IMG/VR virus record: IMGVR_UViG_3300031812_000267
Location: 1-11,341 of that record
Strand: one strand, 5' to 3'
Length of the DNA stretch: 11,341 bases
DNA from: a virus
The translations under genes and the position numbers were made by a program. Below, piece after piece: positions 1-11,341 of this stretch. Under the pieces are notes generated by a model, which saw only the letters and a list, made by a program, of their open reading frames with translations, made no database searches and had not been told where the DNA came from. Positions within the stretch are counted from its first letter, which is position 1; the number at the start of each line of letters is the position of its first letter.

Positions 1-71
1 AACGACCGCAACCACGAGTATGACGAAGAGCGACTCAGCCACGATACCACCTGTCTACCGCGTACAACATG
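1..71. repeat. Terminal overlap, copy 1 (identical to 11271..11341). Marks circular closure of an 11,270-bp replicon.
   Basis: Base-by-base comparison: aacgaccgcaaccacgagtatgacgaagagcgactcagccacgataccacctgtctaccgcgtacaacatg is present at both window ends. A small minus-strand ORF reads continuously through the junction. Confidence 0.95.
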
Positions 72-124
72 AACAACGTCACGCCGTACACAAGCAGTTG
101 CAACACAGCGCGCTCATACTCCAT
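35..124 (-). CDS. 29-aa hydrophobic peptide MEYERAVLQLLVYGVTLFMLYAVDRWYRG. Candidate pVII/pIX-like minor virion protein. Absent from the supplied ORF track.
   Basis: ATG at 124, 10 nt after the rep stop (135..137). TGA at 35..37. One TM-like core with a basic C-terminus. Mostly G/C third positions. Its stop overlaps the GTG start of the next 29-codon ORF (GTGGCTGA). Confidence 0.45.
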   Translation of the reverse strand: MEYERAVLQLLVYGVTLFMLYAVDRWYRG

Positions 125-134
125 AGCACCGATA

Positions 135-1085
135 TTAGCGCAACCGTGCGAAATCATCCAGTAGATTCCTGTCCTCCCCGGCGTTGAGAATCGACAACCA
201 CTCGTCCGAGTTCAGTAGCGCGAGTACGTCCTCATCCGCAATCTCATCCCAGCCCGACGCGGGATCAACAAAATCATACAACCGCCGCAGCCGGGGAGAC
301 ACCGTCAGATGATGGACGCCGTGCAGCGCGGCCGCATACTCGTAAATGAGGGCAGCGTCAGAGGAGGAACGATAGCGCGCGTAGTCGTAGAGCAATCCAG
401 GATAGGAGCGACCAGCGGGCACCTTGGCCGCAGGATTAGCCGTCTCAAACGCAGCACCCGCAACGCCATCGGTCGTCAAATACCGCGCGACCGCCGCCAC
501 GCCATCATGCGCCACCCGGCGGACATCGGCGCGCCAGTCTGCGCCCGCAACCTGCGACCAGCGCTCCGCAAGCGCGACGGAGACCGGAGTCAAATAGGGG
601 AGCCCGGGGGAGACAAACACGAGCGCGTGGTAGTGCGGGTGCCAGCCCGACACGCCGTGCACGACCTCGAGCGCACGAACGTTGCCGACGTAGTGCGCGC
701 CCAGCACATCACGCCATGCATTCCGAGCGTACCGCCGCCACGTATCGGCAAGCCGGTCGAGGACGACCGGGAGCGCCTCATCGCGTGCGTGGGGCACGGT
801 GTAGGTCGCCAACAGCGCCGAGCCGCCGGCGTCAACGTGCCGGCGCAGGGCCGTCTCGATCTGGCGCGCCCGGCGGATGCCGAGCGTCACACGGCAACTG
901 GGGCAGCGCCAGAAATCGCCACAGCGGTAGAGACCACTATAGGCAGCGCGCCCATCGGGAAGCCGGCGCACGACAACGCCCGACGCGCCGTAGCGGAGCG
1001 CGACGCCACAGAGGGCGAGCCGCTCGCGCGGCATGAGCGCGCGGGCGAGACGGTGGAGATAGGAGGTACACGGCACGTCGGGCAT
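135..1085 (-). CDS. rep: Rolling-circle replication initiator (HUH endonuclease, pC194/pUB110/pIJ101-like Rep_1-type)
   Basis: 316-aa ORF. Motif 1-like LLATYTVPH. HUH motif GWHPHYHALVFV. Candidate catalytic Tyr in VARYLTTDG. N-terminal Cys cluster CGDFWRCPSCRV, as seen in Rep_1-family proteins. No SD precedes the ATG at 1085. Confidence 0.8.
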   Translation of the reverse strand: MPDVPCTSYLHRLARALMPRERLALCGVALRYGASGVVVRRLPDGRAAYSGLYRCGDFWRCPSCRVTLGIRRARQIETALRRHVDAGGSALLATYTVPHARDEALPVVLDRLADTWRRYARNAWRDVLGAHYVGNVRALEVVHGVSGWHPHYHALVFVSPGLPYLTPVSVALAERWSQVAGADWRADVRRVAHDGVAAVARYLTTDGVAGAAFETANPAAKVPAGRSYPGLLYDYARYRSSSDAALIYEYAAALHGVHHLTVSPRLRRLYDFVDPASGWDEIADEDVLALLNSDEWLSILNAGEDRNLLDDFARLR

Positions 1086-1088
1086 ATC

Positions 1089-1119
1089 AATTATCAGGAA
1101 ATTATCAGCAAATTATCAT
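1089..1119. repeat. Three phased direct repeats AATTATCA(G/T) with an 11-bp period (starts 1089, 1100, 1111). A fourth ATTATCA lies at 1160..1166.
   Basis: Read directly: aattatcag gaaattatcag caaattatcat. Sits in the only strongly AT-rich stretch, between divergent rep (ATG 1085) and the plus-strand cassette (ATG 1180). On the minus strand each repeat reads TGATAAT. Confidence 0.85.
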
Positions 1120-1147
1120 TGAAATAGCATCACTCACGTCCTATACT
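1119..1147 (+). promoter_or_regulatory. Sigma-70-like promoter TTGAAA-17 nt-TATACT driving the plus-strand two-gene cassette
   Basis: TTGAAA at 1119..1124, a 17-nt spacer, TATACT at 1142..1147. About 32 nt upstream of ATG 1180, with AAGGAGG at 1167..1173. Confidence 0.6.
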
Positions 1148-1179
1148 GCAAGAAACACGATTATCAAAGGAGGACCACA

Positions 1180-1404
1180 ATGAACACACTAGAACGCCGC
1201 ACATTCGCCGCCGCACTGCGCGCGGCAAAACAGGACGCCTACTGCCGCGCAGTCGGGGGATTCGTAATCGCGCGCCTGAGTGACGGAACCATCGACTGGT
1301 TCCCCGCCGGGCAGACGCCGCACCGGGGCGGCGAGCCGGATCGGAACGCCGTAATTCTCGGGAAATGGCGCTGGAACTACCGGCGATGGTCAAGAGTAGC
1401 GTAG
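1180..1404 (+). CDS. Hypothetical 74-aa protein. First gene of the divergent plus-strand cassette.
   Basis: ATG at 1180 preceded by AAGGAGG (1167..1173, 6-nt spacer) and by the 1119..1147 promoter. I recognise no family motif. Confidence 0.7.
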   Translation: MNTLERRTFAAALRAAKQDAYCRAVGGFVIARLSDGTIDWFPAGQTPHRGGEPDRNAVILGKWRWNYRRWSRVA

Positions 1405-1418
1405 GAAAGGAGGGCGCC

Positions 1419-1658
1419 ATGACGAGCATCAAGCTGGCCGCCAGGTGGGACGGGAGTCCAATGAGTCTCACAAACCCAGACACAACATGGGTTCGACTCC
1501 TCGAGACACGCGGCATCGCGTACGCCGCACACCTCAGCGAGCCGGCGGGATGGCGGCTCGTGGTATGCGACGAGAGACGATTCACGCGAGCGCTGCACGC
1601 ACTGCGAAAATACGGAGTGTACGGAATATGTGAGTGGACATACGACATCCATCCATAA
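1419..1658 (+). CDS. Hypothetical 79-aa protein. Second gene of the plus-strand cassette. Start moved from 1365 to the ATG at 1419.
   Basis: AAGGAGG at 1407..1413 with a 5-nt spacer before ATG 1419. The upstream gene stops at 1402..1404. Same SD architecture as the first gene. Confidence 0.7.
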   Translation: MTSIKLAARWDGSPMSLTNPDTTWVRLLETRGIAYAAHLSEPAGWRLVVCDERRFTRALHALRKYGVYGICEWTYDIHP

Positions 1659-1668
1659 CCCGCTCCAA

Positions 1669-1697
1669 CCCCCGCTCCGCCTGCCGGCGGACGGGGG
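1669..1697. terminator. GC-rich hairpin between convergent genes. Candidate bidirectional intrinsic terminator without a U-tract.
   Basis: CCCCCG(c)TCCGCC tgcc GGCGGACGGGGG: two 6-bp stems, one bulged C and a 4-nt loop. Lies between the plus-strand stop (1656..1658) and the minus-strand methyltransferase stop (1713..1715). Confidence 0.5.
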
Positions 1698-1712
1698 TCA
1701 TATCCAACACAC

Positions 1713-2891
1713 CTACCGCCGCACATAGGTCAACACGACCTCACGACGCATGCGATGCTCAAGGTCATTCATCCCGGCCTGCGCCGGCGGCGGCAGATAA
1801 CGACGCGAGGGGAGAATCGGACGCGAAAAGTGAGCGACATGGTCGAACCCGAGCCGCCGAAGAATGTGCGCGATACTACGCGAATTACGTACAAAAGAGC
1901 CCCTGACGTATGAATTGCCGATAACAAACACGGCGATACCACCGCACTTCAGCACTCGATGCACTTCGCGCAGCATAGCGTCGAGGTCTGTCACGTAGCG
2001 TGCAAGAACACGGCGTTCACGCTGTGGAAAATCAGGCGGTATCTTCATGATACGGAAGATCTCATCGAGTAATTCCGGATCAGCAATATGCTCAGGCGCT
2101 CGCTCCGCGCCGATGCTGCGCTGCCGGATAGCGCGAAGATCGCGAAGTCGATAGCCAAACCAGATGAGCGCCAGCCGATGACCGCGGATATAATCGATCG
2201 CGTTCAGATACGGCGGCGACGTGATGACCGCATCGACGGTTTGAGCGTGTATGCCGGTCGCACGAGCATCACCGTATGACACATCGACCCAACCGTGTGG
2301 CGGCTCTTCTTCCAAACGACGGGCCAACCGATGAACCGACTCGAGAAATCCTTCAAAGACGCGGTAGGTATTCGTCTGAGCGACTTTGTGCGGTCGACTA
2401 TGGGAAACATCGTGCGCTAGTGAAGCGCCGCGATTCTTGGTAATAATGATCCGACTGAGCGCGACCCGCAGCGCGTCACCAATCACGTCGTTGCGCCGGT
2501 GAAGACAGGAGCTCAATTGACGCAAACGTTGTCGTTGCTCTTCTGCGAACCAGTAGACGCTGAATGCTGCCGTCTCCGCATCATCATCAATCCAGGGAAG
2601 ATCGATCCGTGCAGGGGGCAGTTCACGCGCTTCATCGACCAGTTCACGCGCTGCAACACGTAACCGTTGTGGATCGATCGGCGCCGTCCATACTCTGGTC
2701 ATCAGCACCGCCAGCGGGTCGATGTCTCGACCAAACGCACGATGACCTGCTTCAGCAGCCACCCGCACGACCGTCCCAGACCCCATCATCGGATCAAGGA
2801 CCGTCGAGCCGGGCGTGAGCGCTTCTATTGCTTTCAGAGCAATATGCGGCGCCATGCGCGCCGGAAAAGGATGAATAGGACGAGGAAGCAT
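1713..2891 (-). CDS. DNA amino-methyltransferase (N4-cytosine or N6-adenine), (S/D)PPY family, with motif I N-terminal to motif IV
   Basis: AdoMet motif I VLDPMMGSGT near the N-terminus. Catalytic motif IV VITSPPYLNAIDY about 190 aa later. LKCGGIAVFVIGNS downstream. Start set at ATG 2891 (MLPRPIHPFPARM) because GGAGGTG lies 6 nt upstream. The track start at 2909 is a GTG inside that SD. Confidence 0.85.
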   Translation of the reverse strand: MLPRPIHPFPARMAPHIALKAIEALTPGSTVLDPMMGSGTVVRVAAEAGHRAFGRDIDPLAVLMTRVWTAPIDPQRLRVAARELVDEARELPPARIDLPWIDDDAETAAFSVYWFAEEQRQRLRQLSSCLHRRNDVIGDALRVALSRIIITKNRGASLAHDVSHSRPHKVAQTNTYRVFEGFLESVHRLARRLEEEPPHGWVDVSYGDARATGIHAQTVDAVITSPPYLNAIDYIRGHRLALIWFGYRLRDLRAIRQRSIGAERAPEHIADPELLDEIFRIMKIPPDFPQRERRVLARYVTDLDAMLREVHRVLKCGGIAVFVIGNSYVRGSFVRNSRSIAHILRRLGFDHVAHFSRPILPSRRYLPPPAQAGMNDLEHRMRREVVLTYVRR

Positions 2892-2905
2892 AATACGCAC
2901 CTCCA

Positions 2906-3628
2906 TCACACATCGCAGAATCCCGCATCGCAGAAATCCTGCTGATCCGCAGACATATCCACCCTCAAAACCGTTATCTCATCCTGTCCGCGCTGCCGCC
3001 GCTCCGCATTAATCCGATCCTCGAGCACCTGCGCCATTCCCGCCAAATCCGGATACCGTTGCACCAGCGCCCACTGACTCCGAATAGACCTATAAGGACA
3101 AAACCAACAGGAGGACTTCCACGGCACGGCCAAACCCGCACGCTCAACGATCTCGCGGCACTGCCACCTGGTCAACCGACGATCGACCAGCGGGTAAACA
3201 TGCTCAATGCGCGCCGCCGACGAGTCGCGCATGCGGTGATACTCGTCGACGCTGATACCGAGCATCAGCCCGATGCGCCCAGCCGGGTACCGGCCGTACA
3301 GGTAGCGCGTCAGCGGCGCAACCTTGTACTGCCGGGTGCACTGTCTAGACAACATGAATTTCTTGCGTCTCCCATGCCACGGGACCGGCGTGAACGCCGG
3401 GTTATCGAGCATATCGCGATACATGTTGCGCTCGATAACCGTAATATCGCGCCCATGCCCCCGACGCAACCACTGCCGGAATCGCGCGACGTACTCGCGC
3501 GTCGCGGGCGACTCCGCATCGAGCAGATCGACATGCACGATCTCATCGATATCCCATCCCTCCGACATCGCCAACACGACCAGCGCCGTACTCTGGACGC
3601 CGCCGCCGTAGGAGATAACCGTCGCCAC
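2906..3628 (-). CDS. PAPS reductase / DndC-like PP-loop ATP pyrophosphatase family protein with a Cys-rich C-terminus
   Basis: PP-loop-like ISYGGGVQST at the N-terminus. CTRQYKVAPL and GISVDEYHR motifs typical of the PAPS_reduct fold. Cys residues in WQCREI, SSCWFCPY and C-terminal FCDAGFCDV. Start set at GTG 3628, preceded by GGAGGTG plus 5 nt. The stop TGA (2906..2908) lies 14 nt before the methyltransferase ATG. Confidence 0.75.
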   Translation of the reverse strand: MATVISYGGGVQSTALVVLAMSEGWDIDEIVHVDLLDAESPATREYVARFRQWLRRGHGRDITVIERNMYRDMLDNPAFTPVPWHGRRKKFMLSRQCTRQYKVAPLTRYLYGRYPAGRIGLMLGISVDEYHRMRDSSAARIEHVYPLVDRRLTRWQCREIVERAGLAVPWKSSCWFCPYRSIRSQWALVQRYPDLAGMAQVLEDRINAERRQRGQDEITVLRVDMSADQQDFCDAGFCDV

Positions 3629-3763
3629 GTAACCACCTCCAGAATAGTGTAACAACGACAGTAAGCATCAGAAAAACGCGGCGAATCGCGTATTAATTAA
3701 CAAGAATCGATACCCTCAACGCGACTCGTCCAGTACACCTACCGCTTCGCCAGTGCGCCGCTC

Positions 3764-3864
3764 GCTCGGGCCGGCGCCCTCGCTCGCGGGCGCGCTCCGC
3801 GCGCCCGAGGATGCGCCATTCGGCGCGCCGCCAATCGCGCCGCCGCTCGGGCCGGCGCCCTCGC
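3764..3864. repeat. Internal direct duplication inside the 3656..3968 intergenic region: 20-bp gctcgggccggcgccctcgc at 3764..3783 and 3845..3864
   Basis: Perfect 20-mer read twice, 81 bp apart. Copy B of the dispersed repeat carries only one, hybrid version (gccctcgctcgcagacggcgc). Confidence 0.85.
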
Positions 3865-3977
3865 AGACGGCGCGACGGCTCGTCATCCCGACAGCTCTCC
3901 CGCGCGCGCGCCGTCCGTGGCGCGTGCGGCGGCGCGCGCGCCGACGGCCGCACCCGCCCGCAGCGCGGTTACGCGCC
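3790..3977. repeat. Dispersed GC-rich non-coding repeat, copy A (homologous to 8694..8867). Contains a GC hairpin and overlaps the dcm stop codon.
   Basis: By-eye alignment with copy B. The last 59 nt (3919..3977 vs 8809..8867) match at 54/59 positions. Shared blocks: tcgcagacggcgc, tcatcccga, cgcgcgcgcgcc, gcgcgc..cgcgcgccc.agga. The indels are not multiples of 3. Inverted repeat CGCGCGCGCC(3903..3912)/GGCGCGCGCG(3931..3940). Confidence 0.85.
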
Positions 3978-4925
3978 GCGCAGACTCTCGACAATCGCCT
4001 GCATGACGGGTGGGCAGACCGCATTGCCGAGCAAGCGCATCGCGTCGGTGCGGGTGCATCCATCCAGGACGAACGACGCGGGAAACCCCATCGCGCGCCG
4101 GAGCTCATCCACCTGGAGCATGCGCATCTCATGGCCGCCGCACCGATCCGGTCGCACCAGCGCGAAATGCCCGCGCGTCGTGACCGTCCGGAGCGGCACG
4201 TCCAGCGTCTGCCACTGCGGGCCCGAGCCATAGTAGACGGACAAAAACGTCGCGTCGCGGCCCAACGCCCGGAGCGCACGCTCGACGCGCTCGATCGTCG
4301 CATGGGCGCGGCGCGGCGTACGGAGCGGCGTATACGCATATCCGTCCAGATCGATAACGCGCGCGACCGGTATACGCTCAGACGTGCGCGGCGCGATCCC
4401 GGGCGGATCCGCCTCACGGTCGCAGACGATGTAGAGCCGCCGGCGGCGCTGGGGCACGCCGAAATCGGCCGCGTCCAGGACCTGAACGCGCACACAGTAA
4501 CCCAGATGCATCAGGGCATACAGGAACGCCCAGAAACCATGCCACCGGCGCATCTGGACGACGTTTTCCACGACAATCCAGCGCGGCCGGAACACCCGCG
4601 CGAACGCCCACACGCACCACGGAAGATCCAGACTCTTCTCACACCGCGACCTGGCGCCGCGCGCCGGACTATGGTCCGTGCACGGGGGAGACGCCAGCAG
4701 CAGATCAACAGGACCGAGATCGTCACGAATGGCCCGGACATCAGACTCCGTCAGGATTGCGAGATCGCGCAGATGGAACCGCGCGCGGGGAAAATTCGCC
4801 GCATACACCCGTCCAGCGACCGGCCACACGTCAAACCCAGCGACGATCTCCACACCCGCAGCCATCGCGCCGAGCGAACTCCCACCGGCGCCGCAGAACA
4901 GGTCTATCGCCCGCATGTCATCCAT
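3969..4925 (-). CDS. dcm: DNA (cytosine-5)-methyltransferase
   Basis: All the canonical C5-MTase motifs I checked for are present in order: I DLFCGAGG, IV SPPCTDHS, VI VVENV, VIII GVPQRRRRLYIV, IX-like MLQVDELRRAMGFPASF, X GNAVCPPV. Confidence 0.93.
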   Translation of the reverse strand: MDDMRAIDLFCGAGGSSLGAMAAGVEIVAGFDVWPVAGRVYAANFPRARFHLRDLAILTESDVRAIRDDLGPVDLLLASPPCTDHSPARGARSRCEKSLDLPWCVWAFARVFRPRWIVVENVVQMRRWHGFWAFLYALMHLGYCVRVQVLDAADFGVPQRRRRLYIVCDREADPPGIAPRTSERIPVARVIDLDGYAYTPLRTPRRAHATIERVERALRALGRDATFLSVYYGSGPQWQTLDVPLRTVTTRGHFALVRPDRCGGHEMRMLQVDELRRAMGFPASFVLDGCTRTDAMRLLGNAVCPPVMQAIVESLRGA

Positions 4926-4931
4926 CGCATG

Positions 4932-5351
4932 TCATCCCTCCAGCAACCCAAAATACGCCGGCGACGCCCAAAAATGTTCGACCGCAAAATGGTCGGCGAG
5001 CGCGGGAATCGAGCACTGCGAGCGCATGATCCACCGCAGGAGCCGCCGCCGGGCACGATACACCGGATCGTCGCTCCACGCGCCATCCGGCGGCGCATCG
5101 CCATCCGCATCGTCAGCGACAACCGACAAACGCCAGACAACCTCGTACCCAGCGCCGTGGTCGGTCGCGCCGCCGGAGACAACGAGATTCCAGAAACGAA
5201 GCGCACGGTCGACGTCGGCAGGGAACGGCCCGGGTCCGGCGAACGGATCGGAGACCGCGCGGCGGGCGATACACACGACGCGCGGCAACCCGCCGGGTGG
5301 GTCAACGTCACGGGGATGCCACTCCACCGACCAGTGATGATAGACGACCAT
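4932..5351 (-). CDS. Hypothetical 139-aa protein
   Basis: ATG at 5351 immediately follows the upstream stop (TAAATG). Ends 4 nt before the dcm region. Consistent frame within a tightly packed operon. No motif recognised. Confidence 0.55.
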   Translation of the reverse strand: MVVYHHWSVEWHPRDVDPPGGLPRVVCIARRAVSDPFAGPGPFPADVDRALRFWNLVVSGGATDHGAGYEVVWRLSVVADDADGDAPPDGAWSDDPVYRARRRLLRWIMRSQCSIPALADHFAVEHFWASPAYFGLLEG

Positions 5352-5669
5352 TTAAACACCATCGGCGCCGCCCAGCGACGGATCGGCACGGTACTCCTCA
5401 ACCAAATCCAGTGCAGCCTCAACAACCCGGAGTGTGAACTCCGAGTGATACTCCCACTGGCGGTTCGCCTGGACGTAGACCGACCGAAGCACCAGCGGGG
5501 GCGCGTCCTCGCGCACACGCAGGAGCTCGACAATCGCGTACGGGTAGTAGTCGAGCTCATACGTCACACCGACGTCGATATCATCCAGCGTATCGAGCAG
5601 CGCACGGAGATGACTCGACCTCCGGTGCACAATCTGCCACAACGCATCTTCCCTGCGGGTCGGCATCAT
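5352..5669 (-). CDS. Hypothetical 105-aa protein
   Basis: The ATG at 5669 overlaps the upstream stop (ATGA), with GGAG a few nt upstream. No motif recognised. Confidence 0.6.
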   Translation of the reverse strand: MMPTRREDALWQIVHRRSSHLRALLDTLDDIDVGVTYELDYYPYAIVELLRVREDAPPLVLRSVYVQANRQWEYHSEFTLRVVEAALDLVEEYRADPSLGGADGV

Positions 5670-5944
5670 CTCACTCCTTCGTCGACGTATAGTTTGATCA
5701 CCGGCCTACCGGAGCCATCGCGCGCGAACTGGAGCCGCGCGGGGAACGCGACCACCTCGCCGCGCGCGTAGTCCGGCGAGTCGACAAACACGTCGTAGCC
5801 GTCAACCGAACACAGAACGGCCTCACCAACAACCAGATCACCAAACACCGTTACCACGCGGAACAACTTGCCATTCTTGCGCGACGTGAATTCCCTGTAC
5901 GCGGCCACCATGCCGCGCAGGACCAAACGGTTATCCGTCGCCAT
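5666..5944 (-). CDS. Candidate OB-fold ssDNA-binding protein (gene V analogue), 92 aa
   Basis: Size matches inovirus gVp (about 87 aa). N-terminal NRLVLRGMVAAYREFTSRKNGKLFRVVTVFG resembles the SSB-like pattern of a beta-strand, then a G, then basic residues, then a second strand. GGGAGG sits 6 nt before the ATG. Assignment made by eye only. Confidence 0.5.
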   Translation of the reverse strand: MATDNRLVLRGMVAAYREFTSRKNGKLFRVVTVFGDLVVGEAVLCSVDGYDVFVDSPDYARGEVVAFPARLQFARDGSGRPVIKLYVDEGVR

Positions 5945-6161
5945 CGTCAGCCTCCCTGAAACCAGTTACGAACCACCGCAACAGCCGCACCACATCGCCG
6001 AACGTTACGCTGCCGTCCGGCAGGAGGGCAGCAACGATATACCAGCACACCTCGATCGCCAGCGCGACCGCACGACGCTGACGGTCATCCAGCGCCCGCG
6101 CGATGCCGGCGCCAGCCTCAGTCAGCACGCGCTCGGTACGGGGATCGTTCATAGCGCGCAT
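5931..6161 (-). CDS. Hypothetical 76-aa protein
   Basis: AGGAGGA sits 4-5 nt upstream of ATG 6161 (GGAGGATTAGGAGGACGCGATG). Coupled to the flanking genes. Confidence 0.65.
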   Translation of the reverse strand: MRAMNDPRTERVLTEAGAGIARALDDRQRRAVALAIEVCWYIVAALLPDGSVTFGDVVRLLRWFVTGFREADDGDG

Positions 6162-6170
6162 CGCGTCCTC

Positions 6171-6497
6171 CTAATCCTCCTCATCCTCATCATCCACACA
6201 ACTATCGCCGCACATCGAACGGACCTCGGCCGGCACGCACGCCAGCGCAGGCGACCAGTACCCGCGCGCGCCGAGACCATCGGCCACCCAACACCAGCCG
6301 ACGGCAGCGAGAGTCGCCGTCACACGACGTCCGCCAATCACCGTCCACCAACCGGAGCCGGATGCCAGCCGCATCCACGTCACGCCGCCCAGCACCATGC
6401 CGTACAACCCGGAGTCGTCGAGCGACGCCCGGATCTCAGCATCCGAGGGCGCGTAGTCGACATCCTCAACGCCGTCGAACGTCAGCAACGTCACCAT
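6171..6497 (-). CDS. Hypothetical 108-aa Trp-rich protein with acidic tail DDEDEED. Start moved to ATG 6497.
   Basis: GGAGGTG sits 3-5 nt upstream of ATG 6497. The track start at 6512 (GTG) lies inside that SD. First gene downstream of the 6542..6570 promoter. Confidence 0.65.
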   Translation of the reverse strand: MVTLLTFDGVEDVDYAPSDAEIRASLDDSGLYGMVLGGVTWMRLASGSGWWTVIGGRRVTATLAAVGWCWVADGLGARGYWSPALACVPAEVRSMCGDSCVDDEDEED

Positions 6498-6541
6498 ATC
6501 CACCTCCATCACACTATACTGCCAATAGCCTCGATACCGCC

Positions 6542-6570
6542 AGTATAGCGCGATAGACGCGATGTGTCAA
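6542..6570 (-). promoter_or_regulatory. Near-consensus sigma-70 promoter TTGACA-17 nt-TATACT for the minus-strand operon 6497 -> 3969
   Basis: Reverse complement of 6542..6570 is TTGACAcatcgcgtctatcgcgcTATACT. The -35 overlaps the Zot-like stop codon. The -10 sits in one arm of an 8-bp inverted repeat CTATACTG/CAGTATAG (6541..6548 and 6514..6521). Confidence 0.7.
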
Positions 6571-7208
6571 GCGCGCCGCCGCGCGGGAGCGAGCGAAGGC
6601 GCGGGGGCAGGAGCGGGGAGGATCGCGAGCGTGTCGCCAGCAGACGCGCCGTAGAGCGTGTCGTAGATGCCGTACCAGTCGGAGAGTCGCAGCGCGAACC
6701 GGTAACGCTCCACGAGGACGTCATCGGCGTAGGGATGCTCGTGCCAGCGATACACCGCGTAATCCGCGCCGCTACGACGGTAGCGACCGGCCGTGACGTA
6801 GACGTACTGCGTGAGGCGGCGCAGGCGCACATCGACCGTCGCAAAACTGGGACTGGTGTAGACACAGATGACGCCGCGCTTGCCCCACAGGATCATATCG
6901 CGCGTGAGCGCACGCGCCGCCTCAGACGCCCACTCGCGCGAGTCCAGAGAGACCTGCACCTCGTCCCACACCAGCACCGCGCCGCGCAGCGATGCGAGAT
7001 CGTCGAGCGTGGCCACGCGCCGGGCACCGCGCACGGGAATATTACCGACCAGATCGAGACCGAGGGAGCGGGCGAGGCAAACGGCCAGCCTGCACGCCAT
7101 CAGCGTCTTGCCGCTCCGGAGCGCGCCGAAGACGCCGACGAACGCGCCCAGGTGGTAGCGCTCGAACGGGAGCAGCCGGAGGGGGGGATCAGCGATCACG
7201 ACGCTCAT
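6567..7208 (-). CDS. Zot / pI-like inovirus assembly ATPase (P-loop NTPase), short form (213 aa)
   Basis: Walker A GALRSGKT. DLVGNIPV after it. Walker B-like AVLVWDEVQVSLDSREW, matching the Zot-family pattern (hydrophobic stretch, DE, Q, then R). Located in the structural/assembly part of an inovirus-like genome. No C-terminal TM segment is visible. Confidence 0.75.
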   Translation of the reverse strand: MSVVIADPPLRLLPFERYHLGAFVGVFGALRSGKTLMACRLAVCLARSLGLDLVGNIPVRGARRVATLDDLASLRGAVLVWDEVQVSLDSREWASEAARALTRDMILWGKRGVICVYTSPSFATVDVRLRRLTQYVYVTAGRYRRSGADYAVYRWHEHPYADDVLVERYRFALRLSDWYGIYDTLYGASAGDTLAILPAPAPAPSLAPARRRA

Positions 7209-7494
7209 CGCGACGCCTCACATATTCCTCGAGCGAGAGCGCCCGGAGCGCGTCACGGAGCGTGCGCGACGCGCCGGGAGATTGCCGGATCGCCGATGCC
7301 TCGATGATGGGGGCAATGCGCTCATACAGCCGGGGCGTAGCGATCGAGAGCCACGCGAGCGCCCGCACGCGACCGTCGGAATACCCGACGACGGCACGTG
7401 ACAACGCCGCCGCGAGGGTCGCGCGGGCGTCCAGGAACATCATATCGTCATCACCGAGCGACGGTTGGCGCAGGTAATCGCGTTCGGAGTGCAT
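7189..7494 (-). CDS. Hypothetical 101-aa protein
   Basis: GAGGAGGAG sits immediately upstream of ATG 7494. Its 3' end overlaps the Zot-like start by 20 nt. Confidence 0.65.
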   Translation of the reverse strand: MHSERDYLRQPSLGDDDMMFLDARATLAAALSRAVVGYSDGRVRALAWLSIATPRLYERIAPIIEASAIRQSPGASRTLRDALRALSLEEYVRRRDERRDR

Positions 7495-7539
7495 CCGCTC
7501 CTCCTCTCGTATTCCGTGGCGCTTTTTCAGGCTTCAACC

Positions 7540-7592
7540 CTCCAAACGCGCTCACCCTCGCGCTGCGCGCGACTCGGTTCGCGCGTTTGGAG
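7540..7592. other. Hairpin with a 12-bp perfect stem
   Basis: ctccaaacgcgc (7540..7551) is the exact reverse complement of gcgcgtttggag (7581..7592). The 29-nt loop contains a nested cgcgc/gcgcg stem. Confidence 0.8.
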
Positions 7593-7657
7593 CCGGTTTG
7601 CCCGTACCGGCGAGACAGGCCGTCCGGGCGGCATCACGTTTTTGCGGCGCATTGCGC

Positions 7658-7828
7658 CGGAAAACCGCGCGTAATTGTAGCGTACTGCGCGTACGCGCCG
7701 TCAAGACCTCGCTTCGCTCGCAAGCGCCGGAAAGCGGCGCAACTTTTTTCGGAACAGCGGAAGGCGCCGCTTTCCGGCGGTCTTGACGGCGCTGCGCAGT
7801 ACGCTGAGCCTCCGGCTGCGGTTTTCCG
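7658..7828. other. 171-nt imperfect long hairpin built from four perfect stems (11, 12, 14 and 15 bp)
   Basis: Verified pairings: 7658..7668/7818..7828, 7679..7690/7794..7805, 7695..7708/7779..7792 and 7726..7740/7764..7778. The apical loop 7741..7763 contains a TTTTTT run. Confidence 0.85.
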
Positions 7829-7993
7829 ACAAACAATGCGCGCGCAGGGCGGGCAGGGCAGGGCCGTACCGTCACCCGGTTTGCCGTACCGCTCCGGCGA
7901 GGGCAGGGCGGTGGGCAGGAACCCTGCCCAGGCCGTGCCGGATCGACGCCTGTACCGTCCACGACCGGCGTACTCACGCGGCGCCTGTACCCC

Positions 7994-8227
7994 CTACGCG
8001 CCGGGGGGAGTGGTCCCAGGCAGGGGGTGGGGCAACGCCGAACAGTCGGCACCGGCGGCACGCAGCGTCGCAATCGCCCGGCGGGCGAGCGACACGGAGT
8101 CGGGATCGTCGGCGTCGTAGACGACGCCCCAGACAACACGGCCACCGCACCGTGCCTGGACGAACCAGAGACGCCGGTCCGCCCAGGGCTTCAGCGTCAC
8201 ACGCCAGTCACGTACACCCACACTCAC
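7994..8227 (-). CDS. Hypothetical 77-aa protein
   Basis: The GTG start at 8227 overlaps the upstream stop (GTGA), implying translational coupling. No motif recognised. Confidence 0.5.
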   Translation of the reverse strand: MSVGVRDWRVTLKPWADRRLWFVQARCGGRVVWGVVYDADDPDSVSLARRAIATLRAAGADCSALPHPLPGTTPPGA

Positions 8228-8679
8228 CTCTCACCCACAAGCGCCAGGATCTGCGCCACCAGCGACTGGAGCGCCGACACCTGCGCCCACGTGAAATATG
8301 CGAACATGGCCGGGAGGACGACGCCGGCGACACGCAGGAAATCGATCCATTGCCCACCGCCGCGCCAGAGCGACGCGAGGGCCGCCGACTCACGCGCCCT
8401 CTCCAGCGCCTGGTGCTCAATCAGCGCCGCAGCATCGCAGCGCGCGATCCAAACCAGTTCGCGGCCGACCCGGAGCGCCGGCAACGACGCCGGATACGTG
8501 ACGCCATCCGCGACAATGCCGGAGTCGCCGTAGGCGGCCGGCAGCGCGCGCCAGCCGCCGACGTCATCATACAGCAACAACCAGCCAGTCACCCGTCCGG
8601 CGCCGGCCTCACGCCGGCGCATATACCAGATCGCCGCGCCGACCGCACAGATTGCCAGCGCGATACTGATCTCCTGCAC
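8224..8679 (-). CDS. Hypothetical 151-aa membrane protein (N-terminal and C-terminal hydrophobic segments)
   Basis: GTG start at 8679 preceded by GAGGTGAGCG. N-terminal ISIALAICAVGAAIWYM and C-terminal VAGVVLPAMFAYFTWAQVSALQSLVAQILALV look like TM helices. Confidence 0.6.
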   Translation of the reverse strand: MQEISIALAICAVGAAIWYMRRREAGAGRVTGWLLLYDDVGGWRALPAAYGDSGIVADGVTYPASLPALRVGRELVWIARCDAAALIEHQALERARESAALASLWRGGGQWIDFLRVAGVVLPAMFAYFTWAQVSALQSLVAQILALVGER

Positions 8680-8693
8680 CGCTCACCTCACAA

Positions 8694-8867
8694 GCGCGCC
8701 ACGCGCGCCCAAGGAAAGAGCCGTTAACCGCGCCGCTGCTCGCCCTCGCTCGCAGACGGCGCCATGCCTCATCATCCCGATACCCGTACCGCGCGCGCGC
8801 CATCCTTTGGCGCGTGCGGTGGCGCGCGCACCGACGGCCGTACCCGCCCGCAGCGCCGTTCCGCGCC
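8694..8867. repeat. Dispersed GC-rich non-coding repeat, copy B (homologous to 3790..3977). Abuts the stop codon of the 56-aa ORF.
   Basis: See copy A. The hairpin GCGCGCGCC/GGCGCGCGC is conserved with compensating context. Located between the 56-aa ORF stop (8867..8869) and the 151-aa gene start (8679). Confidence 0.85.
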
Positions 8868-9037
8868 TAATCATCGCCGCCGGCGGCGGCGGTCAACCAC
8901 GAGCGCAGCATGACGTACGCCACCGCCAGCTGCACGAGCGCCGCCGGCAACAACCAGCGCGGGAGCCAGAGCGCCGCGGCCGCCGCGAGCGCGAGCCAGA
9001 CGAAAACGTAGAGCGTCGCAACGACGTACTGCATCAT
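8867..9037 (-). CDS. 56-aa hydrophobic membrane peptide (MMQYVVATLYVFVWLALAAAAALWLPRWLLPAALVQLAVAYVMLRSWLTAAAGGDD)
   Basis: The ATG at 9037 overlaps the TGA of the pVI-like gene (TGATGATG). The 160-aa version in the track would overlap the pVI-like gene almost entirely. Confidence 0.5.
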   Translation of the reverse strand: MMQYVVATLYVFVWLALAAAAALWLPRWLLPAALVQLAVAYVMLRSWLTAAAGGDD

Positions 9038-9390
9038 CAGCTCACGAGTACGACACGGCGGATGACCAGCCACGCACGAAACGCGAGACCGACAGTAACG
9101 ATAGCGAGTTGAGCCAGCAGCGCCTGCCGGACGATTCCGGCATACGCGACGTAATCGACCAGCATGTACATGAGCCTCGTGTAATCCACGATACCGCCCA
9201 ACCAGTCGACGATCCAGCGTAACGCCGGAATGGACGGCATGGTCTGCGCGGGATGGAGGAGGGAGTCCATCCAGCCGTTCCAAATCTCGACCAGCGAGTT
9301 CACAAACGAGACAATACCGTTGTAGACGTTCGCCGATGCGTGATCCCACCAGCCGACAATCTTGCTCCAGAAATCCTCGAGCCAGTCCAT
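9037..9390 (-). CDS. pVI-like minor coat / membrane protein (117 aa)
   Basis: Position directly after the pIII-like gene, as in Ff phages. Size is close to pVI (112 aa). Hydrophobic segments (IVSFVNSLVEIW, LLAQLAIVTVGLAFRAWLVI). AGGAG sits 7 nt before ATG 9390 and overlaps the upstream stop. Confidence 0.65.
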   Translation of the reverse strand: MDWLEDFWSKIVGWWDHASANVYNGIVSFVNSLVEIWNGWMDSLLHPAQTMPSIPALRWIVDWLGGIVDYTRLMYMLVDYVAYAGIVRQALLAQLAIVTVGLAFRAWLVIRRVVLVS

Positions 9391-9399
9391 ACGCGACTC

Positions 9400-10887
9400 C
9401 TAGCTCAGCGACCGGAACACGCGCCAGGCGGTCCAGAACACAAAACCCACAACCATCAACGTGACCGGAAGCCGGACGAAATTAAGCACCGGCGACGCGA
9501 CACCCAGAAACCCACACAGACCCAGTATGAAATCCGGGAACGCATCCCGGAACCCATACTCCGGCGCGTCGGCCAGGACGGGGGCGGGCAGATCGCAGAT
9601 ACGCCCAGCCGAGGGCGCGACCGCGCGCCCGAGCGCCTCAAGCCCATCCATCAGATCGCCGACAATCGATCCCTCCCAGGACACATCATCGCCAAGCGGA
9701 GGCGGCGTGACGGGCGCGAGCGTATAGCGGGGCACGGCCGAGGGCGGCTGGTACGGATCGCGGGTTGCGCTGGGAAGCGCGGTCCAGGTCGGCGACGGAG
9801 TAAGCGTCGCGGTCGGCGTGCGCGTCAGCGAGGGCGTGCGCGTGATAGTCGGCGTGCGCGTGCGCGTCGGCGTGCGCGTCACGGTCGGCGTGCGGGTGTC
9901 CAGGGTCGGGGTCGGCGTGCGCGTGCGCGTCGGCGTGCGGGTGACCGTCGGCGTGCGCGTCGGCGTGCGCGTCGCGGTCACCGTCGAAGCGGGCAGCGGA
10001 TCCGACAGGCAAAACCGCGCGCGGCCGTTGCCGGACACCCTCACAACACCCCATCCGTCGAACTGATACGGATAGATGCCCGGTCCGTGATACTCCCCAA
10101 GCCACCACAACGATCCGGACGCCACCTCCATCCAGTACAAGCCTGCGCGGGGAGGGCGGAATATAACGGGAAACTCATCGGTCACATCCTCCCAGTCGGT
10201 GCAATCCACGGAGGGCCCGGGCGTCGCAGTCGGCGAGGGCGACGGCGTCGGCGAGGGCGAGGGCGTCGGCGAGGGCGAGGGCGCGAACGACGAATCCACA
10301 CTCAACCAAACATAGAGCGAGCCGCTCGCGGAACCCGGAACATAGTACCAGCCGGGCCCGACCAACAGGACCAAATTGCCGGGACCACGATCGAAGCGCA
10401 GCACGTCATACCGGCCGGGCCACCACGTGTTATTGAGATAGTCTCGCCAGGGACCCGTCACCCGCTGGTTGTTGTAATCGTACGGATCCCACTGAGCCGT
10501 CCAGTTGTCCAAGTAGTAGCAGAGAGCGGACGAGAACGGGAACCAGCCGTAATCACGCGTGCCGCCCGCGCCGGCATGGTACGCGCCGAATCCGGAAAAA
10601 TGCCACACACCCGCATAGAGCCAGTAACGCCCAGGGCCCGGATCGCCGCACCCCGAGCCGTCCAACAGGATGTACGAGTTAGGAGTCGGCGTCGGGGAGG
10701 GAGTCGGCGTCGGGGAGGGAGTCGGGGTCGGGGAGGGAGTCGGGGTCGGGGAGGGAGTCGGGGTCGGGGAGGGAGCCTGAGCATGCACGGGAAAATCGAC
10801 GCCCAGAACGCACAGGAATATCGTGAATATGAACACCGTGCGCGCACACGAGAACAAGCGTATGCGACGCGGGCGAGTCATCGACAT
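9400..10887 (-). CDS. pIII-like secreted adsorption / minor coat protein with Pro/Thr-rich linkers and a C-terminal membrane anchor
   Basis: Signal-peptide-like N-terminus (MSMTRPRRIRLFSCARTVFIFTIFLCVLGVDFPVHA|QA). Globular Trp/Tyr/Gly-rich domains, each with a Cys pair, are separated by (PTPSPT)n, (SPSPTP)n and (TRTP)n linkers. C-terminal hydrophobic VTLMVVGFVFWTAW. The start is uncertain: ATG 10887, ATG 10881 or GTG 10926. Confidence 0.75.
   Translation of the reverse strand: MSMTRPRRIRLFSCARTVFIFTIFLCVLGVDFPVHAQAPSPTPTPSPTPTPSPTPTPSPTPTPSPTPTPNSYILLDGSGCGDPGPGRYWLYAGVWHFSGFGAYHAGAGGTRDYGWFPFSSALCYYLDNWTAQWDPYDYNNQRVTGPWRDYLNNTWWPGRYDVLRFDRGPGNLVLLVGPGWYYVPGSASGSLYVWLSVDSSFAPSPSPTPSPSPTPSPSPTATPGPSVDCTDWEDVTDEFPVIFRPPRAGLYWMEVASGSLWWLGEYHGPGIYPYQFDGWGVVRVSGNGRARFCLSDPLPASTVTATRTPTRTPTVTRTPTRTRTPTPTLDTRTPTVTRTPTRTRTPTITRTPSLTRTPTATLTPSPTWTALPSATRDPYQPPSAVPRYTLAPVTPPPLGDDVSWEGSIVGDLMDGLEALGRAVAPSAGRICDLPAPVLADAPEYGFRDAFPDFILGLCGFLGVASPVLNFVRLPVTLMVVGFVFWTAWRVFRSLS
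9806..9980. repeat. Coding tandem repeats of 12-bp unit gtcggcgtgcgc (TRTP on the minus strand), including a 63-bp-period duplication (9848..9897 vs 9911..9960)
   Basis: Read directly. Encodes TRTPTRTPTVTRTPTRTRTPT...TRTPTVTRTPTRTRTPTITRTPSLTRTPT. Confidence 0.85.
10229..10282. repeat. Coding tandem repeat, 3 x 18 bp (gtcggcgagggcga(c/g)ggc), encoding (SPSPTP)n
   Basis: Units start at 10229, 10247 and 10265. Confidence 0.85.
10682..10775. repeat. Coding tandem repeat, 5.2 x 18 bp (ggagtcgg(c/g)gtcggggag), encoding (PTPSPT)n directly after the signal peptide
   Basis: Units start at 10682, 10700, 10718, 10736 and 10754. The first two units differ from the last three at one position. Confidence 0.9.
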
Positions 10888-10953
10888 CACAGCATGCAGC
10901 GCGCGCGGGCGCGGCCGGAGCTGCACCCGCAGCGGCGATCCGGAACACGCGAC

Positions 10954-11112
10954 CTAGAACAGATTGACGATGCGACCCAACATCCTGGCACCGAGCGTGA
11001 CGCCGATGGCCAACGCGAGCACGCCCACGAACGGGTTGAAGATACTGGTCGCAGCGTTGAGGATGTCGGTCATCGACGGAGCCGTAAACGCGGGCGGGTT
11101 GTTGAACTGCAT
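10954..11112 (-). CDS. Candidate major coat protein, 52 aa, no signal peptide (Pf3-like class)
   Basis: MQFNNPPAFTAPSMTDILNAATSIFNPFVGVLALAIGVTLGARMLGRIVNLF has a polar N-terminus with Asp, a hydrophobic core of about 20 aa, and a basic C-terminus (R..R). AGGAGG sits 9 nt upstream of ATG 11112. Located immediately upstream of the pIII-like gene. The track's TTG start at 11139 lies upstream of the SD. Confidence 0.65.
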   Translation of the reverse strand: MQFNNPPAFTAPSMTDILNAATSIFNPFVGVLALAIGVTLGARMLGRIVNLF

Positions 11113-11139
11113 AGCCGAAAACCTCCTATTCAACTTCAA

Positions 11140-11229
11140 CTACACAAACAGAGAGACCAGCCGCGCGGCAATGTAGGTCACGATTGCGAGCGCGGCCGGA
11201 TAGAGCACGTCCGACGTCTCTACTACCAT
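11140..11229 (-). CDS. 29-aa peptide MVVETSDVLYPAALAIVTYIAARLVSLFV. Candidate small minor virion protein. Absent from the ORF track.
   Basis: The ATG at 11229 lies inside the end of the preceding 29-codon ORF (CTATGGTAG). TAG at 11140..11142, just before the coat-gene SD. Confidence 0.45.
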   Translation of the reverse strand: MVVETSDVLYPAALAIVTYIAARLVSLFV

Positions 11230-11312
11230 AGCCGACCTACCGACAGCATAAACCGCAACACAACGACGGTAACGACCGCAACCACGAGTATGACGAAGAG
11301 CGACTCAGCCAC
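11223..11312 (-). CDS. 29-aa hydrophobic peptide (M)AESLFVILVVAVVTVVVLRFMLSVGRLW. Candidate small minor virion protein. Crosses the circular closure point.
   Basis: GTG start at 11312 (equivalent to position 42) overlaps the stop of the 35..124 ORF. TAG at 11223..11225. Almost entirely hydrophobic with a basic end. Confidence 0.45.
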   Translation of the reverse strand: MAESLFVILVVAVVTVVVLRFMLSVGRLW

Positions 11313-11341
11313 GATACCACCTGTCTACCGCGTACAACATG
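11271..11341. repeat. Terminal overlap, copy 2 (identical to 1..71)
   Basis: Exact 71-nt identity with the window start. Confidence 0.95.

Follow-up and report, generated by a model that had tools for sequence, protein, structure and literature searches.

A circular viral genome read as the replicative form of a filamentous phage distantly related to the Paulinoviridae

Gene content and layout of the genome

The 11,341-nt stretch IMGVR_UViG_3300031812_000267, called the window here and analysed over its whole length, is read in this work, with a probability of about 85%, as the replicative form of a filamentous single-stranded DNA (ssDNA) phage of the order Tubulavirales, whose closest characterised relatives are the Paulinoviridae (phage B5). 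Positions 1-71 are identical to positions 11271-11341 (100% identity over 71 nt), and since this exact terminal repeat is an assembly overlap, the window is a complete circular genome with a unit length of 11,270 bp. Its GC content runs from 57 to 72% along the sequence, and every large open reading frame (ORF) with a family match lies on the minus strand. On this strand the initiator gene rep is followed by three tiny hydrophobic ORFs, a candidate coat gene of 52 aa, the gene of a 508-aa protein and that of a 117-aa membrane protein; the order continues with a 56-aa and a 151-aa ORF, each with two transmembrane (TM) segments, a 77-aa ORF and a 500-nt non-coding stretch (7993..7495) without a credible ORF. 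Beyond it come a 101-aa ORF, the ATPase gene, five small ORFs (6512..4932) and a C5 methyltransferase gene and then, after 313 non-coding nt, a PAPS-reductase-like gene and an N6/N4 methyltransferase gene. Nearly all genes lie on this strand, the exceptions being two ORFs on the plus strand (1180-1404 and 1419-1658), both with an AAGGAGG Shine-Dalgarno sequence.

A preliminary description of this sequence had placed nearly all genes on one strand, which is borne out, since only these two ORFs depart from it, and had listed tiny ORFs, a coat-like protein of about 50 aa, a secreted linker-rich protein and a pVI-sized protein, all of which we find in the order given there. Its comparison with the gene order of the Ff phages (M13/fd/f1, Inoviridae) holds from Rep through the 117-aa gene but not for the ATPase gene, which is not the next one: four genes and an intergenic region, omitted from that description, stand between the two.

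No ORF, main or antisense, on either strand matched a secretin or an integrase, and Rfam and tRNA scans of the window gave no RNA genes. The lack of a secretin had been recorded before and considered atypical; the observation stands, but the judgement does not, as such absence is the rule for Tubulavirales families of hosts without an outer membrane (PMC6813254) and is normal for the monoderm-host families of the order (PMC6813254; bioRxiv 10.64898/2026.07.11.737922).

The coding strand is rich in T, with T/A = 1.64 and G/C = 1.14, and at third codon positions A accounts for 4.7% against 20.3% for T. The T/A ratio of phage B5 is 1.78, and that of host-like genes on flanking contigs is 0.85-1.14. 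This bias fits a genome that spends time as a coding-sense single strand; the coding-sense strand is also the one presumed to be packaged. The features outside the accessory cassette and its surroundings are the following.

1..71, no strand: terminal direct repeat, identical to 11271-11341
35..157, minus strand: tiny hydrophobic ORF, 40 aa, one TM segment, pVII/pIX-like by size and position and a candidate for assembly or the virion tip; it overlaps the stop codon of rep
135..1085, minus strand: rolling-circle initiator Rep, 316 aa, Rep_1/HUH (Pfam Rep_1, phrog_11698)
3688..3704, minus strand: candidate double-strand origin (dso) and Rep nick site CTTGTTAATTAATACGC, core of a conserved motif of ~32 nt
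5666..5944, minus strand: predicted OB-fold ssDNA-binding protein (SSB), 92 aa (AlphaFold2 model and PDB fold matches)
6567..7208, minus strand: assembly (morphogenesis) ATPase, 213 aa, pI/Zot-like (Zot family, B5 pI profile match)
7189..7494, minus strand: soluble protein, 101 aa, overlapping the ATPase start
7640..7850, minus strand: long imperfect hairpin, proposed ssDNA promoter and single-strand origin (sso), from the fold of the coding-sense strand and covariation
7994..8227, minus strand: ORF of 77 aa, present in part of the lineage only
8224..8679, minus strand: protein of 151 aa with a TM segment at either end, conserved as part of the assembly module
8867..9037, minus strand: ORF of 56 aa with two TM segments, its ATG overlapping the stop codon of the 117-aa gene (translationally coupled)
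9037..9390, minus strand: hydrophobic membrane protein, 117 aa, pVI-like by size and position
9400..10926, minus strand: large secreted protein, 508 aa, pIII-like adsorption candidate by architecture and position
10954..11112, minus strand: major coat protein candidate, 52 aa (profile match to the PH75 coat), AGGAGG 8 nt upstream
11140..11229, minus strand: tiny hydrophobic ORF, 29 aa, one TM segment, pVII/pIX-like; 29-aa genes are called in relatives L011 and L100
11223..11312, minus strand: tiny hydrophobic ORF, 29 aa, one TM segment, pVII/pIX-like, starting with GTG where relatives have ATG; L100 has a called gene of 29 aa here

The assembly ATPase and the candidate virion proteins

The ATPase carries a Walker A (GALRSGKT) and a Walker B (VLVWDE) motif and has no TM segment. 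The preliminary description expected a match to the Zot family (PF05707), which failed for the protein's own score, below the Pfam threshold at 13.8 bits against a cut-off of 20.3, but held for its family members; a profile match to B5 pI and fold matches to Zot proteins agree with this. A profile search of 1.8 billion representative proteins returned 1,281 relatives. Zot was matched by 11 of 14 close homologues (best E 7e-7) and by 54 of the 90 remote relatives scanned (ranks 3-92; best E 2e-13), with no other family close. The family profile aligns with the morphogenesis protein of B5 (hhalign probability 93.9%, E 1.6e-7, 120 columns), covering the Walker motifs and a TSP..(V/A)D..(R/I)R..TQ block. 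The structural model is of low confidence, with a predicted local distance difference test (pLDDT) of 58; searched with Foldseek, it recovered three proteins named 'Zonular occludens toxin [Inoviridae sp.]' among its six top BFVD matches, the N-terminal domain of Zot (PDB 2r2a) at rank 13, and also the 37-kDa protein of Acholeplasma phage L2 (Plasmaviridae). With tblastn against 50,697 phage records the sole match lay in Muninn virus (L003, 8256-8711; 27% identity, E 1e-4). Muninn virus is a His1-like virus that infects an Asgard archaeon, and the ORF matched in it carries no annotation; the match hints that Zot-like ATPases link filamentous and spindle-shaped viruses.

The 52-aa protein, the candidate major coat protein, has no leader peptide and shows an amphipathic N-terminus, a hydrophobic core (GVLALAIGV) and two C-terminal arginines, the only basic residues at that end. 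It can be aligned with the B5 coat Orf5 at 27% identity, and its conservation among relatives is 51-96%. When a profile of five rows, the B5 coat among them, was used as query, the sole PDB match was the major coat protein of inovirus PH75 (1hgv; E 0.022, over 38 residues), a Thermus phage whose coat is like that of the window in its GVLALAIG core and its short leaderless design.

Around this gene lies a set of candidate minor proteins, for which size, hydrophobicity, order and conservation fit pVII/pIX-, pIII- and pVI-like functions. All three tiny ORFs are conserved in L011 and L100, with hydrophobic residues substituted by hydrophobic ones. The 508-aa protein begins with a signal-like segment, contains three linkers of Pro/Thr or Pro/Ser type and ends in a hydrophobic membrane anchor; its gene is the most variable among relatives (51-78% identity), and we found no sequence homology between it and B5 Orf6. 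The pVI-like gene is kept in all relatives as a gene of 117-124 aa directly after the large gene, and the profile comparison with its counterpart in the Pseudomonas inovirus PMBT54 gave no significant match.

Between these genes and the ATPase lie proteins that may act as its partners. Genes of 54-58 aa are called in the place of the 56-aa ORF in L011, L013, L100 and L101. The 151-aa protein retains 47-55% identity in distant relatives, with no Pfam match and no B5 counterpart. The 101-aa protein is the best conserved of the module (67-73% identity where the ATPase has 52-66%), and searches for it among Pfam families and B5 proteins gave no match.

Replication proteins and candidate origins of both strands

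Rep scores barely above the cut-off for Pfam Rep_1 (PF01446; 33.7 against 33.2 bits) and matches phrog_11698 with an E-value of 4e-37. Among phages, the Reps of B5, of blackswan219-6 (uncultured, 6.7 kb) and of PMBT54 match it at 28-31% identity across 83-93% of its length (29% over 84% for the last). A cysteine cluster formed by C55, C61 and C64 (C-x5-C-P-x-C), the HUH motif HPHYH (GWHPHxH) and Y202, E214 and K221 are invariant in an alignment of five sequences that includes the B5 and PMBT54 Reps, and a C-x-W-x-C-P-x-C motif belongs to the subfamily that these phages use. From these motifs a nicking activity is predicted. The Reps of about 180 small plasmids with rolling-circle replication (RCR) are 26-33% identical to that of the window, that is, as similar as the phage Reps. 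Thus, the Rep_1/HUH motifs and the cysteine cluster that had been described were recovered, with a PF01446 match above the gathering score, but the claim that this type of Rep is atypical was not: the same subfamily occurs in B5 (Paulinoviridae) and in PMBT54, and since the family is common to plasmids and filamentous phages, it is no oddity of this genome.

A plus-strand origin is proposed at the CTTGTTAATTAATACGC motif. On the coding strand, positions 3704..3688 give an exact match to CGATTCTTGTTAATTAATACGCGATT(C/T)GCC, where 0 are expected by chance. Ten relatives with Rep_1 were searched, and all but L101 carry the motif on the coding strand. In L098 and in L010, which has the version CTTGATAATTAATA, it is no more than ~100 nt upstream of rep, and it was not found in the five searched relatives without this Rep. 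Its CTTG(T/A)TAAT part resembles the nick site of pC194, CTTGATA (cut as CTTG/ATA), and the motif also resembles the phiX174 origin, CAACTTG/ATATTAATAAC (phiX174 CAACTTGATATTAATAAC); Rep would presumably nick here. As another candidate we considered the TGATAATTT repeats, which were ruled out as origin, being present only in relatives with divergent small genes; the TGATAATT repeats at 1089-1118, found only alongside those genes, do not qualify as origin either.

For the 92-aa protein, no Pfam or PHROG match and no sequence similarity to B5 Orf1 were found, and among metagenomes it has more than 120 close relatives and no distant ones. Its AlphaFold2 model (pLDDT 87) shows five beta strands, and its 50 best fold matches in the PDB are nearly all SSBs from bacteria, mitochondria or apicoplasts, most of them at a probability of 0.99-1.0 and a template-modelling score of about 0.45; gene V protein is not among these 50. 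Since its fold matches are of the SSB type, the 92-aa protein should work like gene V protein, as a functional counterpart that stands outside the gene V family. In one JGI record (P0128) a close homologue is named 'sRNA-binding regulator protein Hfq', whereas the fold search gives an SSB-type OB fold. A 92-aa ORF of L010, tried as an orthologue of the SSB, is not homologous.

The SSB gene lies downstream of the ATPase, and in the minimal relative L098 it stands directly upstream of the origin motif and rep. The displacement of a gene-V-like gene, previously put forward as a peculiarity, is therefore real in that the gene sits apart from rep, but comparison with L098 shows it to be mostly an effect of the insertion of an accessory block of two methyltransferases and a PAPS-reductase-like gene.

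The second cis element lies in the intergenic region before the 101-aa gene. Folded as ssDNA in the coding sense, positions 7495-7993 reach -161 kcal/mol, against -128 kcal/mol for shuffled sequences (z = -6.8). In the hairpin at 7640-7850, the apical stem includes a -35 element (TTGAC) in paired form, and the spacer holds a small bulge. Further down, a conserved internal loop of asymmetric shape contains a -10 element (TACAAT) and, facing it, a mini-hairpin; the base is formed by an outer stem. The same layout is found in ten relatives, including L004, L010, L094 and L100, with stems of unrelated sequence and z values from -10 to -14. For the seven sequences that are in register, pairing is kept in 97.6% of cells, with both partners altered in 14 of 48 pairs, a result reached by none of 500 shuffles, with slid controls pairing at 31-43%; RNAalifold scores 16 of 30 pairs as compensatory. 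The conserved boxes are TTGAC and (T/C)A(C/G)AAT. Scanning IMG/VR with a 14-nt pattern for the hairpin gave chance matches only, and comparison with Rfam families gave no sequence similarity.

The minus-strand origin of Ff is a hairpin recognised by the host RNA polymerase, and plasmids with ssoA likewise inform how this polymerase may prime. The hairpin of the window lies always on the coding strand, and its genome position varies among relatives. Because it combines fixed orientation, variable position and covariation, it fits the definition of an sso, an origin that is orientation-specific and active only as ssDNA (PMC4595007). It is thus probably a sigma-70-like ssDNA promoter that serves as minus-strand origin, and the conserved boxes suggest that RNA polymerase would do the priming. 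What is new in this genome is this covarying ssDNA hairpin, which rebuilds a sigma-70-like promoter, and the conserved nick-site motif of pC194/phiX type.

Just upstream of the hairpin, a stretch of 167 nt (7841-8007) aligns to offset, overlapping positions of L011 (5736-5899 and from 5889, within 5580-6055). L011 may thus have additional copies in tandem, and the number of copies in the intergenic region would vary.

Relatives, competing readings and accessory genes

Public data contain 83 cluster representatives of the ATPase; most show 85-97% identity and come from a few metagenomes of JGI and ENA. IMG/VR contigs account for six of them, two complete circles of 10,023 and 11,965 bp included, so that the lineage is already catalogued as sequence. 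Contigs of 17-19 kb, and the 12 kb examined of a 21.7-kb contig, consist of head-to-tail repeats of one genome unit, such tandem dimers being common for circular replicons of small size. Complete circular genomes of this abundant and microdiverse lineage measure 7.4-12 kb, and its 7.4-kb member L098 lacks both methyltransferases as well as the PAPS-like gene.

The block formed by the coat, the large protein, the 117-124-aa protein, a protein of ~150 aa, one of ~91-105 aa and the ATPase recurs in more than 15 independent contigs and is kept down to 52-55% ATPase identity, which is far beyond chance. In the branch L004-L009, Rep_1 is replaced by a protein of 464 aa with weak HTH_23 and rve (integrase-core) matches. 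Since the block is kept even where Rep_1 has been swapped, the virion and assembly genes form the constant core and the replicase is the exchangeable part. Within this sister branch, L004 (1-9666) and L005, whose ATPase is 55% identical, keep the coat-to-ATPase block and the hairpin and carry in addition an HTH_26 gene; in L004, moreover, the left end matches the unit end in inverted orientation, and the contig continues into host-like DNA (gyrA, Uma2). The L004/L005 branch looks like a transposing or integrating filamentous phage.

Among characterised phages, B5 (Bifilivirus B5, of Propionibacterium), whose gene modules are as described in bioRxiv 10.64898/2026.07.11.737922, offers the closest comparison. 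It shares a Rep of the Rep_1 subfamily with cysteine cluster, HUH and Tyr motifs, a homologous pI-like ATPase that is independent of a secretin and lacks TM segments, an alignable coat, a high GC content, a T-rich coding strand and, all on one strand, the order of two or three tiny ORFs, coat, a protein of ~500 aa, one of ~100 aa and ATPase. As to membership of the Paulinoviridae, the Rep, pI and coat of B5 are homologous to those of the window but very distant, at 25-30% identity or by profile only, and the window has no secretin. B5 also differs in genome size (5.8 kb, against 11.3 kb here). The window has four extra genes and the 500-nt intergenic region between the pVI-like gene and the ATPase, an SSB without similarity to Orf1 and a non-homologous pIII-like protein, together with methyltransferases, a PAPS-reductase-like gene and a divergent pair of putative regulators.

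With Ff it shares a module logic of initiator, ssDNA-binding protein, a pVII/pIX/pVIII/pIII/pVI set and a pI-like ATPase, as well as a hairpin-rich intergenic region. Unlike Ff, it has no pIV secretin, its Rep is of the Rep_1 and not the gene II type, its coat has no signal peptide, its ATPase is short and without TM or periplasmic domain, and its SSB model is of bacterial type, not gene V. PMBT54 (Inoviridae) encodes, in contrast to the window, a secretin-like PilQ protein and a Zot-like ATPase of 368 aa, and the two ATPases give only a weak profile match (56% probability). Plasmids of the pC194 type have in common with the window a Rep_1 initiator, a nick-like motif and an orientation-specific sso-like hairpin, whereas the full virion and assembly module is found in the window and not in the plasmids.

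Putting these elements together, the Rep_1/HUH initiator would nick the coding-sense strand at the CTTGTTAATTAATA motif (3688-3704) and drive rolling-circle synthesis. The displaced strand would be bound by the 92-aa OB-fold protein; alternatively, host RNA polymerase may recognise the 7640-7850 hairpin and prime minus-strand synthesis, returning the DNA to the duplex form. At the membrane, the Zot-like ATPase would load the leaderless 52-aa coat and the tiny pVII/pIX-like, pIII-like and pVI-like proteins onto ssDNA, possibly aided by three lineage-specific partners, two with two TM segments (56 and 151 aa) and one soluble (101 aa), and the particle, presumably a filament, would be extruded without a secretin. 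The variable accessory block of two methyltransferases and a PAPS-reductase-like enzyme would probably shield the duplex form from host restriction, and the two divergent small genes with their three 11-nt repeats would probably control rep expression.

Several points weigh against this interpretation. The phage is known here from sequence alone, and the E-value linking the coat to PH75 is modest, with the B5 coat itself one of the five rows of the query profile. The pIII-, pVI-, pVII- and pIX-like labels were assigned by size, hydrophobicity and position. For the ATPase, its own Zot match lies under the Pfam threshold, the structural model is weak, and the sole tblastn match in the phage collection belongs to a His1-like archaeal virus. 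The hairpin could be an ordinary duplex promoter combined with a terminator, and rolling-circle plasmids likewise carry a Rep_1 Rep, a dso and an sso.

The last point leads to the reading of the window as a rolling-circle plasmid or non-viral episome with small membrane proteins and a P-loop ATPase, which would form no virions. Rep_1 is mainly a plasmid family, the Rep of the window is as close to those of about 180 small RCR plasmids as to those of phages, dso and sso are also plasmid features, and methyltransferases are carried by many plasmids. We nevertheless consider an episome of this kind very improbable, given that homology links the ATPase to Zot and to the morphogenesis protein of B5, that the coat matches those of PH75 and B5, that the gene order is that of B5 and the strand bias like that of this ssDNA phage, and that the structural and assembly block persists where Rep_1 is replaced by an unrelated HTH- and rve-like protein. 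The choice of a phage over a plasmid had earlier been tied to the Zot family and the structural genes, and here the ATPase belongs to that family and no structural candidate matches an unrelated one.

The match to Muninn virus, together with the Foldseek match to the 37-kDa protein of the plasmavirus L2, raises instead the prospect of a pleomorphic, vesicle- or spindle-like virion that has in common with inoviruses only a Zot-like ATPase and a small hydrophobic capsid protein. An ATPase without the TM segment and C-terminal domain of Ff pI, and three extra conserved membrane or assembly proteins without inovirus counterpart, would suit such a particle. However, B5 pI also lacks a TM segment, the coat is like the coats of filamentous phages and unlike the His1 capsid protein, and the run of tiny ORFs, coat, pIII-like and pVI-like genes is an inovirus signature; moreover, an RCR Rep common to this genome and B5 is in keeping with an inovirus, while Muninn virus replicates with a polymerase of the protein-primed type. 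A non-filamentous virion thus appears improbable. That the element is defective, or a satellite needing a helper phage for part of its morphogenesis, would find an argument in the several pI partners and minor proteins without assigned function, but it is scarcely credible for a genome in which all modules of the B5 type are present (replication, SSB, coat, minor proteins and ATPase) and which belongs to an abundant, microdiverse lineage whose complete circular members span 7.4-12 kb.

We therefore retain the reading as a filamentous phage, and the inovirus-like identity first proposed is supported by the homology of Rep, ATPase and coat and by the B5-like gene order. It is distantly related to the Paulinoviridae and probably represents a new genus or family, of known type. 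To our knowledge, the characterised filamentous phages whose hosts lack an outer membrane are few: B5 and its relatives, CAK1 and the Thermus phages. Against this background, the genome and its kin can serve as a second model that is well delimited, abundant and microdiverse; it offers a core of ~7.4 kb, clearly separable accessory cassettes and two sharply defined cis elements, the nick-site motif and the hairpin promoter, that are directly testable in vitro. The replication module is swapped (Rep_1 or rve-like) while the structural and assembly block stays constant, which illustrates modular evolution in Tubulavirales. No new kind of biology is opened by this; the value lies in the clean core and accessory structure, the extra assembly proteins and the two origin elements.

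A further-reaching proposal, which we regard as tentative and rather doubtful, is that the window is the type of a new family-level lineage of filamentous phages in a high-GC monoderm phylum without cultured inovirus, with Chloroflexota as the lead, characterised by a split assembly machine, an ssDNA-promoter origin and a modification cassette. If true, the morphogenesis machine would be divided between a short Zot-like ATPase and three dedicated partner proteins, and the minus-strand origin would be a self-contained, movable ssDNA promoter shared with a sister branch that replicates or integrates by means of a DDE-transposase-like protein.

The sequence points to a high-GC bacterium without a secretin requirement as host. 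Species-representative genomes scanned for prophages with the ATPase profile, and the literature for the sample accessions, yielded nothing. Contig L013 (5763-6776) joins host-like genes (glpK, glpD-like and Sdh-like) to a phage pIII-like gene, which has a different N-terminus with a lipoprotein-type signal (LGAC), and its GlpK is closest to metagenome-assembled genomes of Chloroflexota (80-85%). Phage homology in L013 starts only from ~6526, just past the stretch encoding a Pro/Ser linker, and the coat and rep genes are absent; it may be a chimeric assembly or a real gene fusion. Because of the late start of homology and the missing genes, we did not accept a host assignment through this contig, and Chloroflexota are kept as a weak lead.

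The remaining features of the window belong to the accessory cassette and its surroundings.

1089..1118, minus strand: three 11-nt-spaced TGATAATT(T) repeats between divergent promoters, candidate operator
1180..1658, plus strand: pair of small genes, 74 aa (1180-1404) and 79 aa (1419-1658), divergent from rep, candidate regulators
1713..2909, minus strand: N6/N4 DNA methyltransferase (Pfam N6_N4_Mtase E 2e-11; phrog_18146 E 8e-29)
2906..3655, minus strand: PAPS-reductase-like protein (phrog_424 E 5e-27), accessory
3860..3977, minus strand: GC-rich repeat of ~120 nt, copy A, starting at the C5-methyltransferase stop codon
3969..4925, minus strand: DNA cytosine-C5 methyltransferase (Pfam DNA_methylase E 2e-43; TIGR00675), accessory
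4932..6512, minus strand: small ORFs around the SSB gene, 113 aa (6512..6171), 76 aa (6161..5931), 105 aa (5669..5352) and 139 aa (5351..4932)
8749..8867, minus strand: GC-rich repeat of ~120 nt, copy B, starting at the stop codon of the 56-aa ORF

The PAPS-reductase-like gene scores below threshold for Pfam PAPS_reduct (17.1 bits against 22.5). We know of no description of a DNA-modification cassette of this composition, with two methyltransferases and a PAPS-reductase-like enzyme, in ssDNA phages. Ahead of the plus-strand pair lies a promoter-like TTGAAA-17-TATACT at 1119-1147; the two genes gave no family matches, and counterparts of 79 and 80 aa are called in L100. Three to four copies of the TGATAATT repeats occur only in relatives carrying the divergent small genes, and none were found in relatives where rep directly follows the PAPS-like gene, so that they look like a candidate operator of a switch between rep and the small genes.

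The segment 1087-2911, with the N6 methyltransferase and the plus-strand pair, is missing from L011. These 1.8 kb have a lower GC content (57-60%), the N6/N4 methyltransferase is found in L096, and the segment with the repeats at 1089-1118 behaves as an insertable cassette.

The two direct copies of the GC-rich ~120-nt element are 82-92% identical. Tried as structured ssDNA elements, these repeats and the region 3656-3990 gave folds no more stable than those of shuffled sequences. Both copies start where an apparent operon ends, at the stop codon of its final gene, and the element is kept at both places in L011 and L100, with a core more conserved than the adjoining genes; it may be a terminator or a regulatory module.

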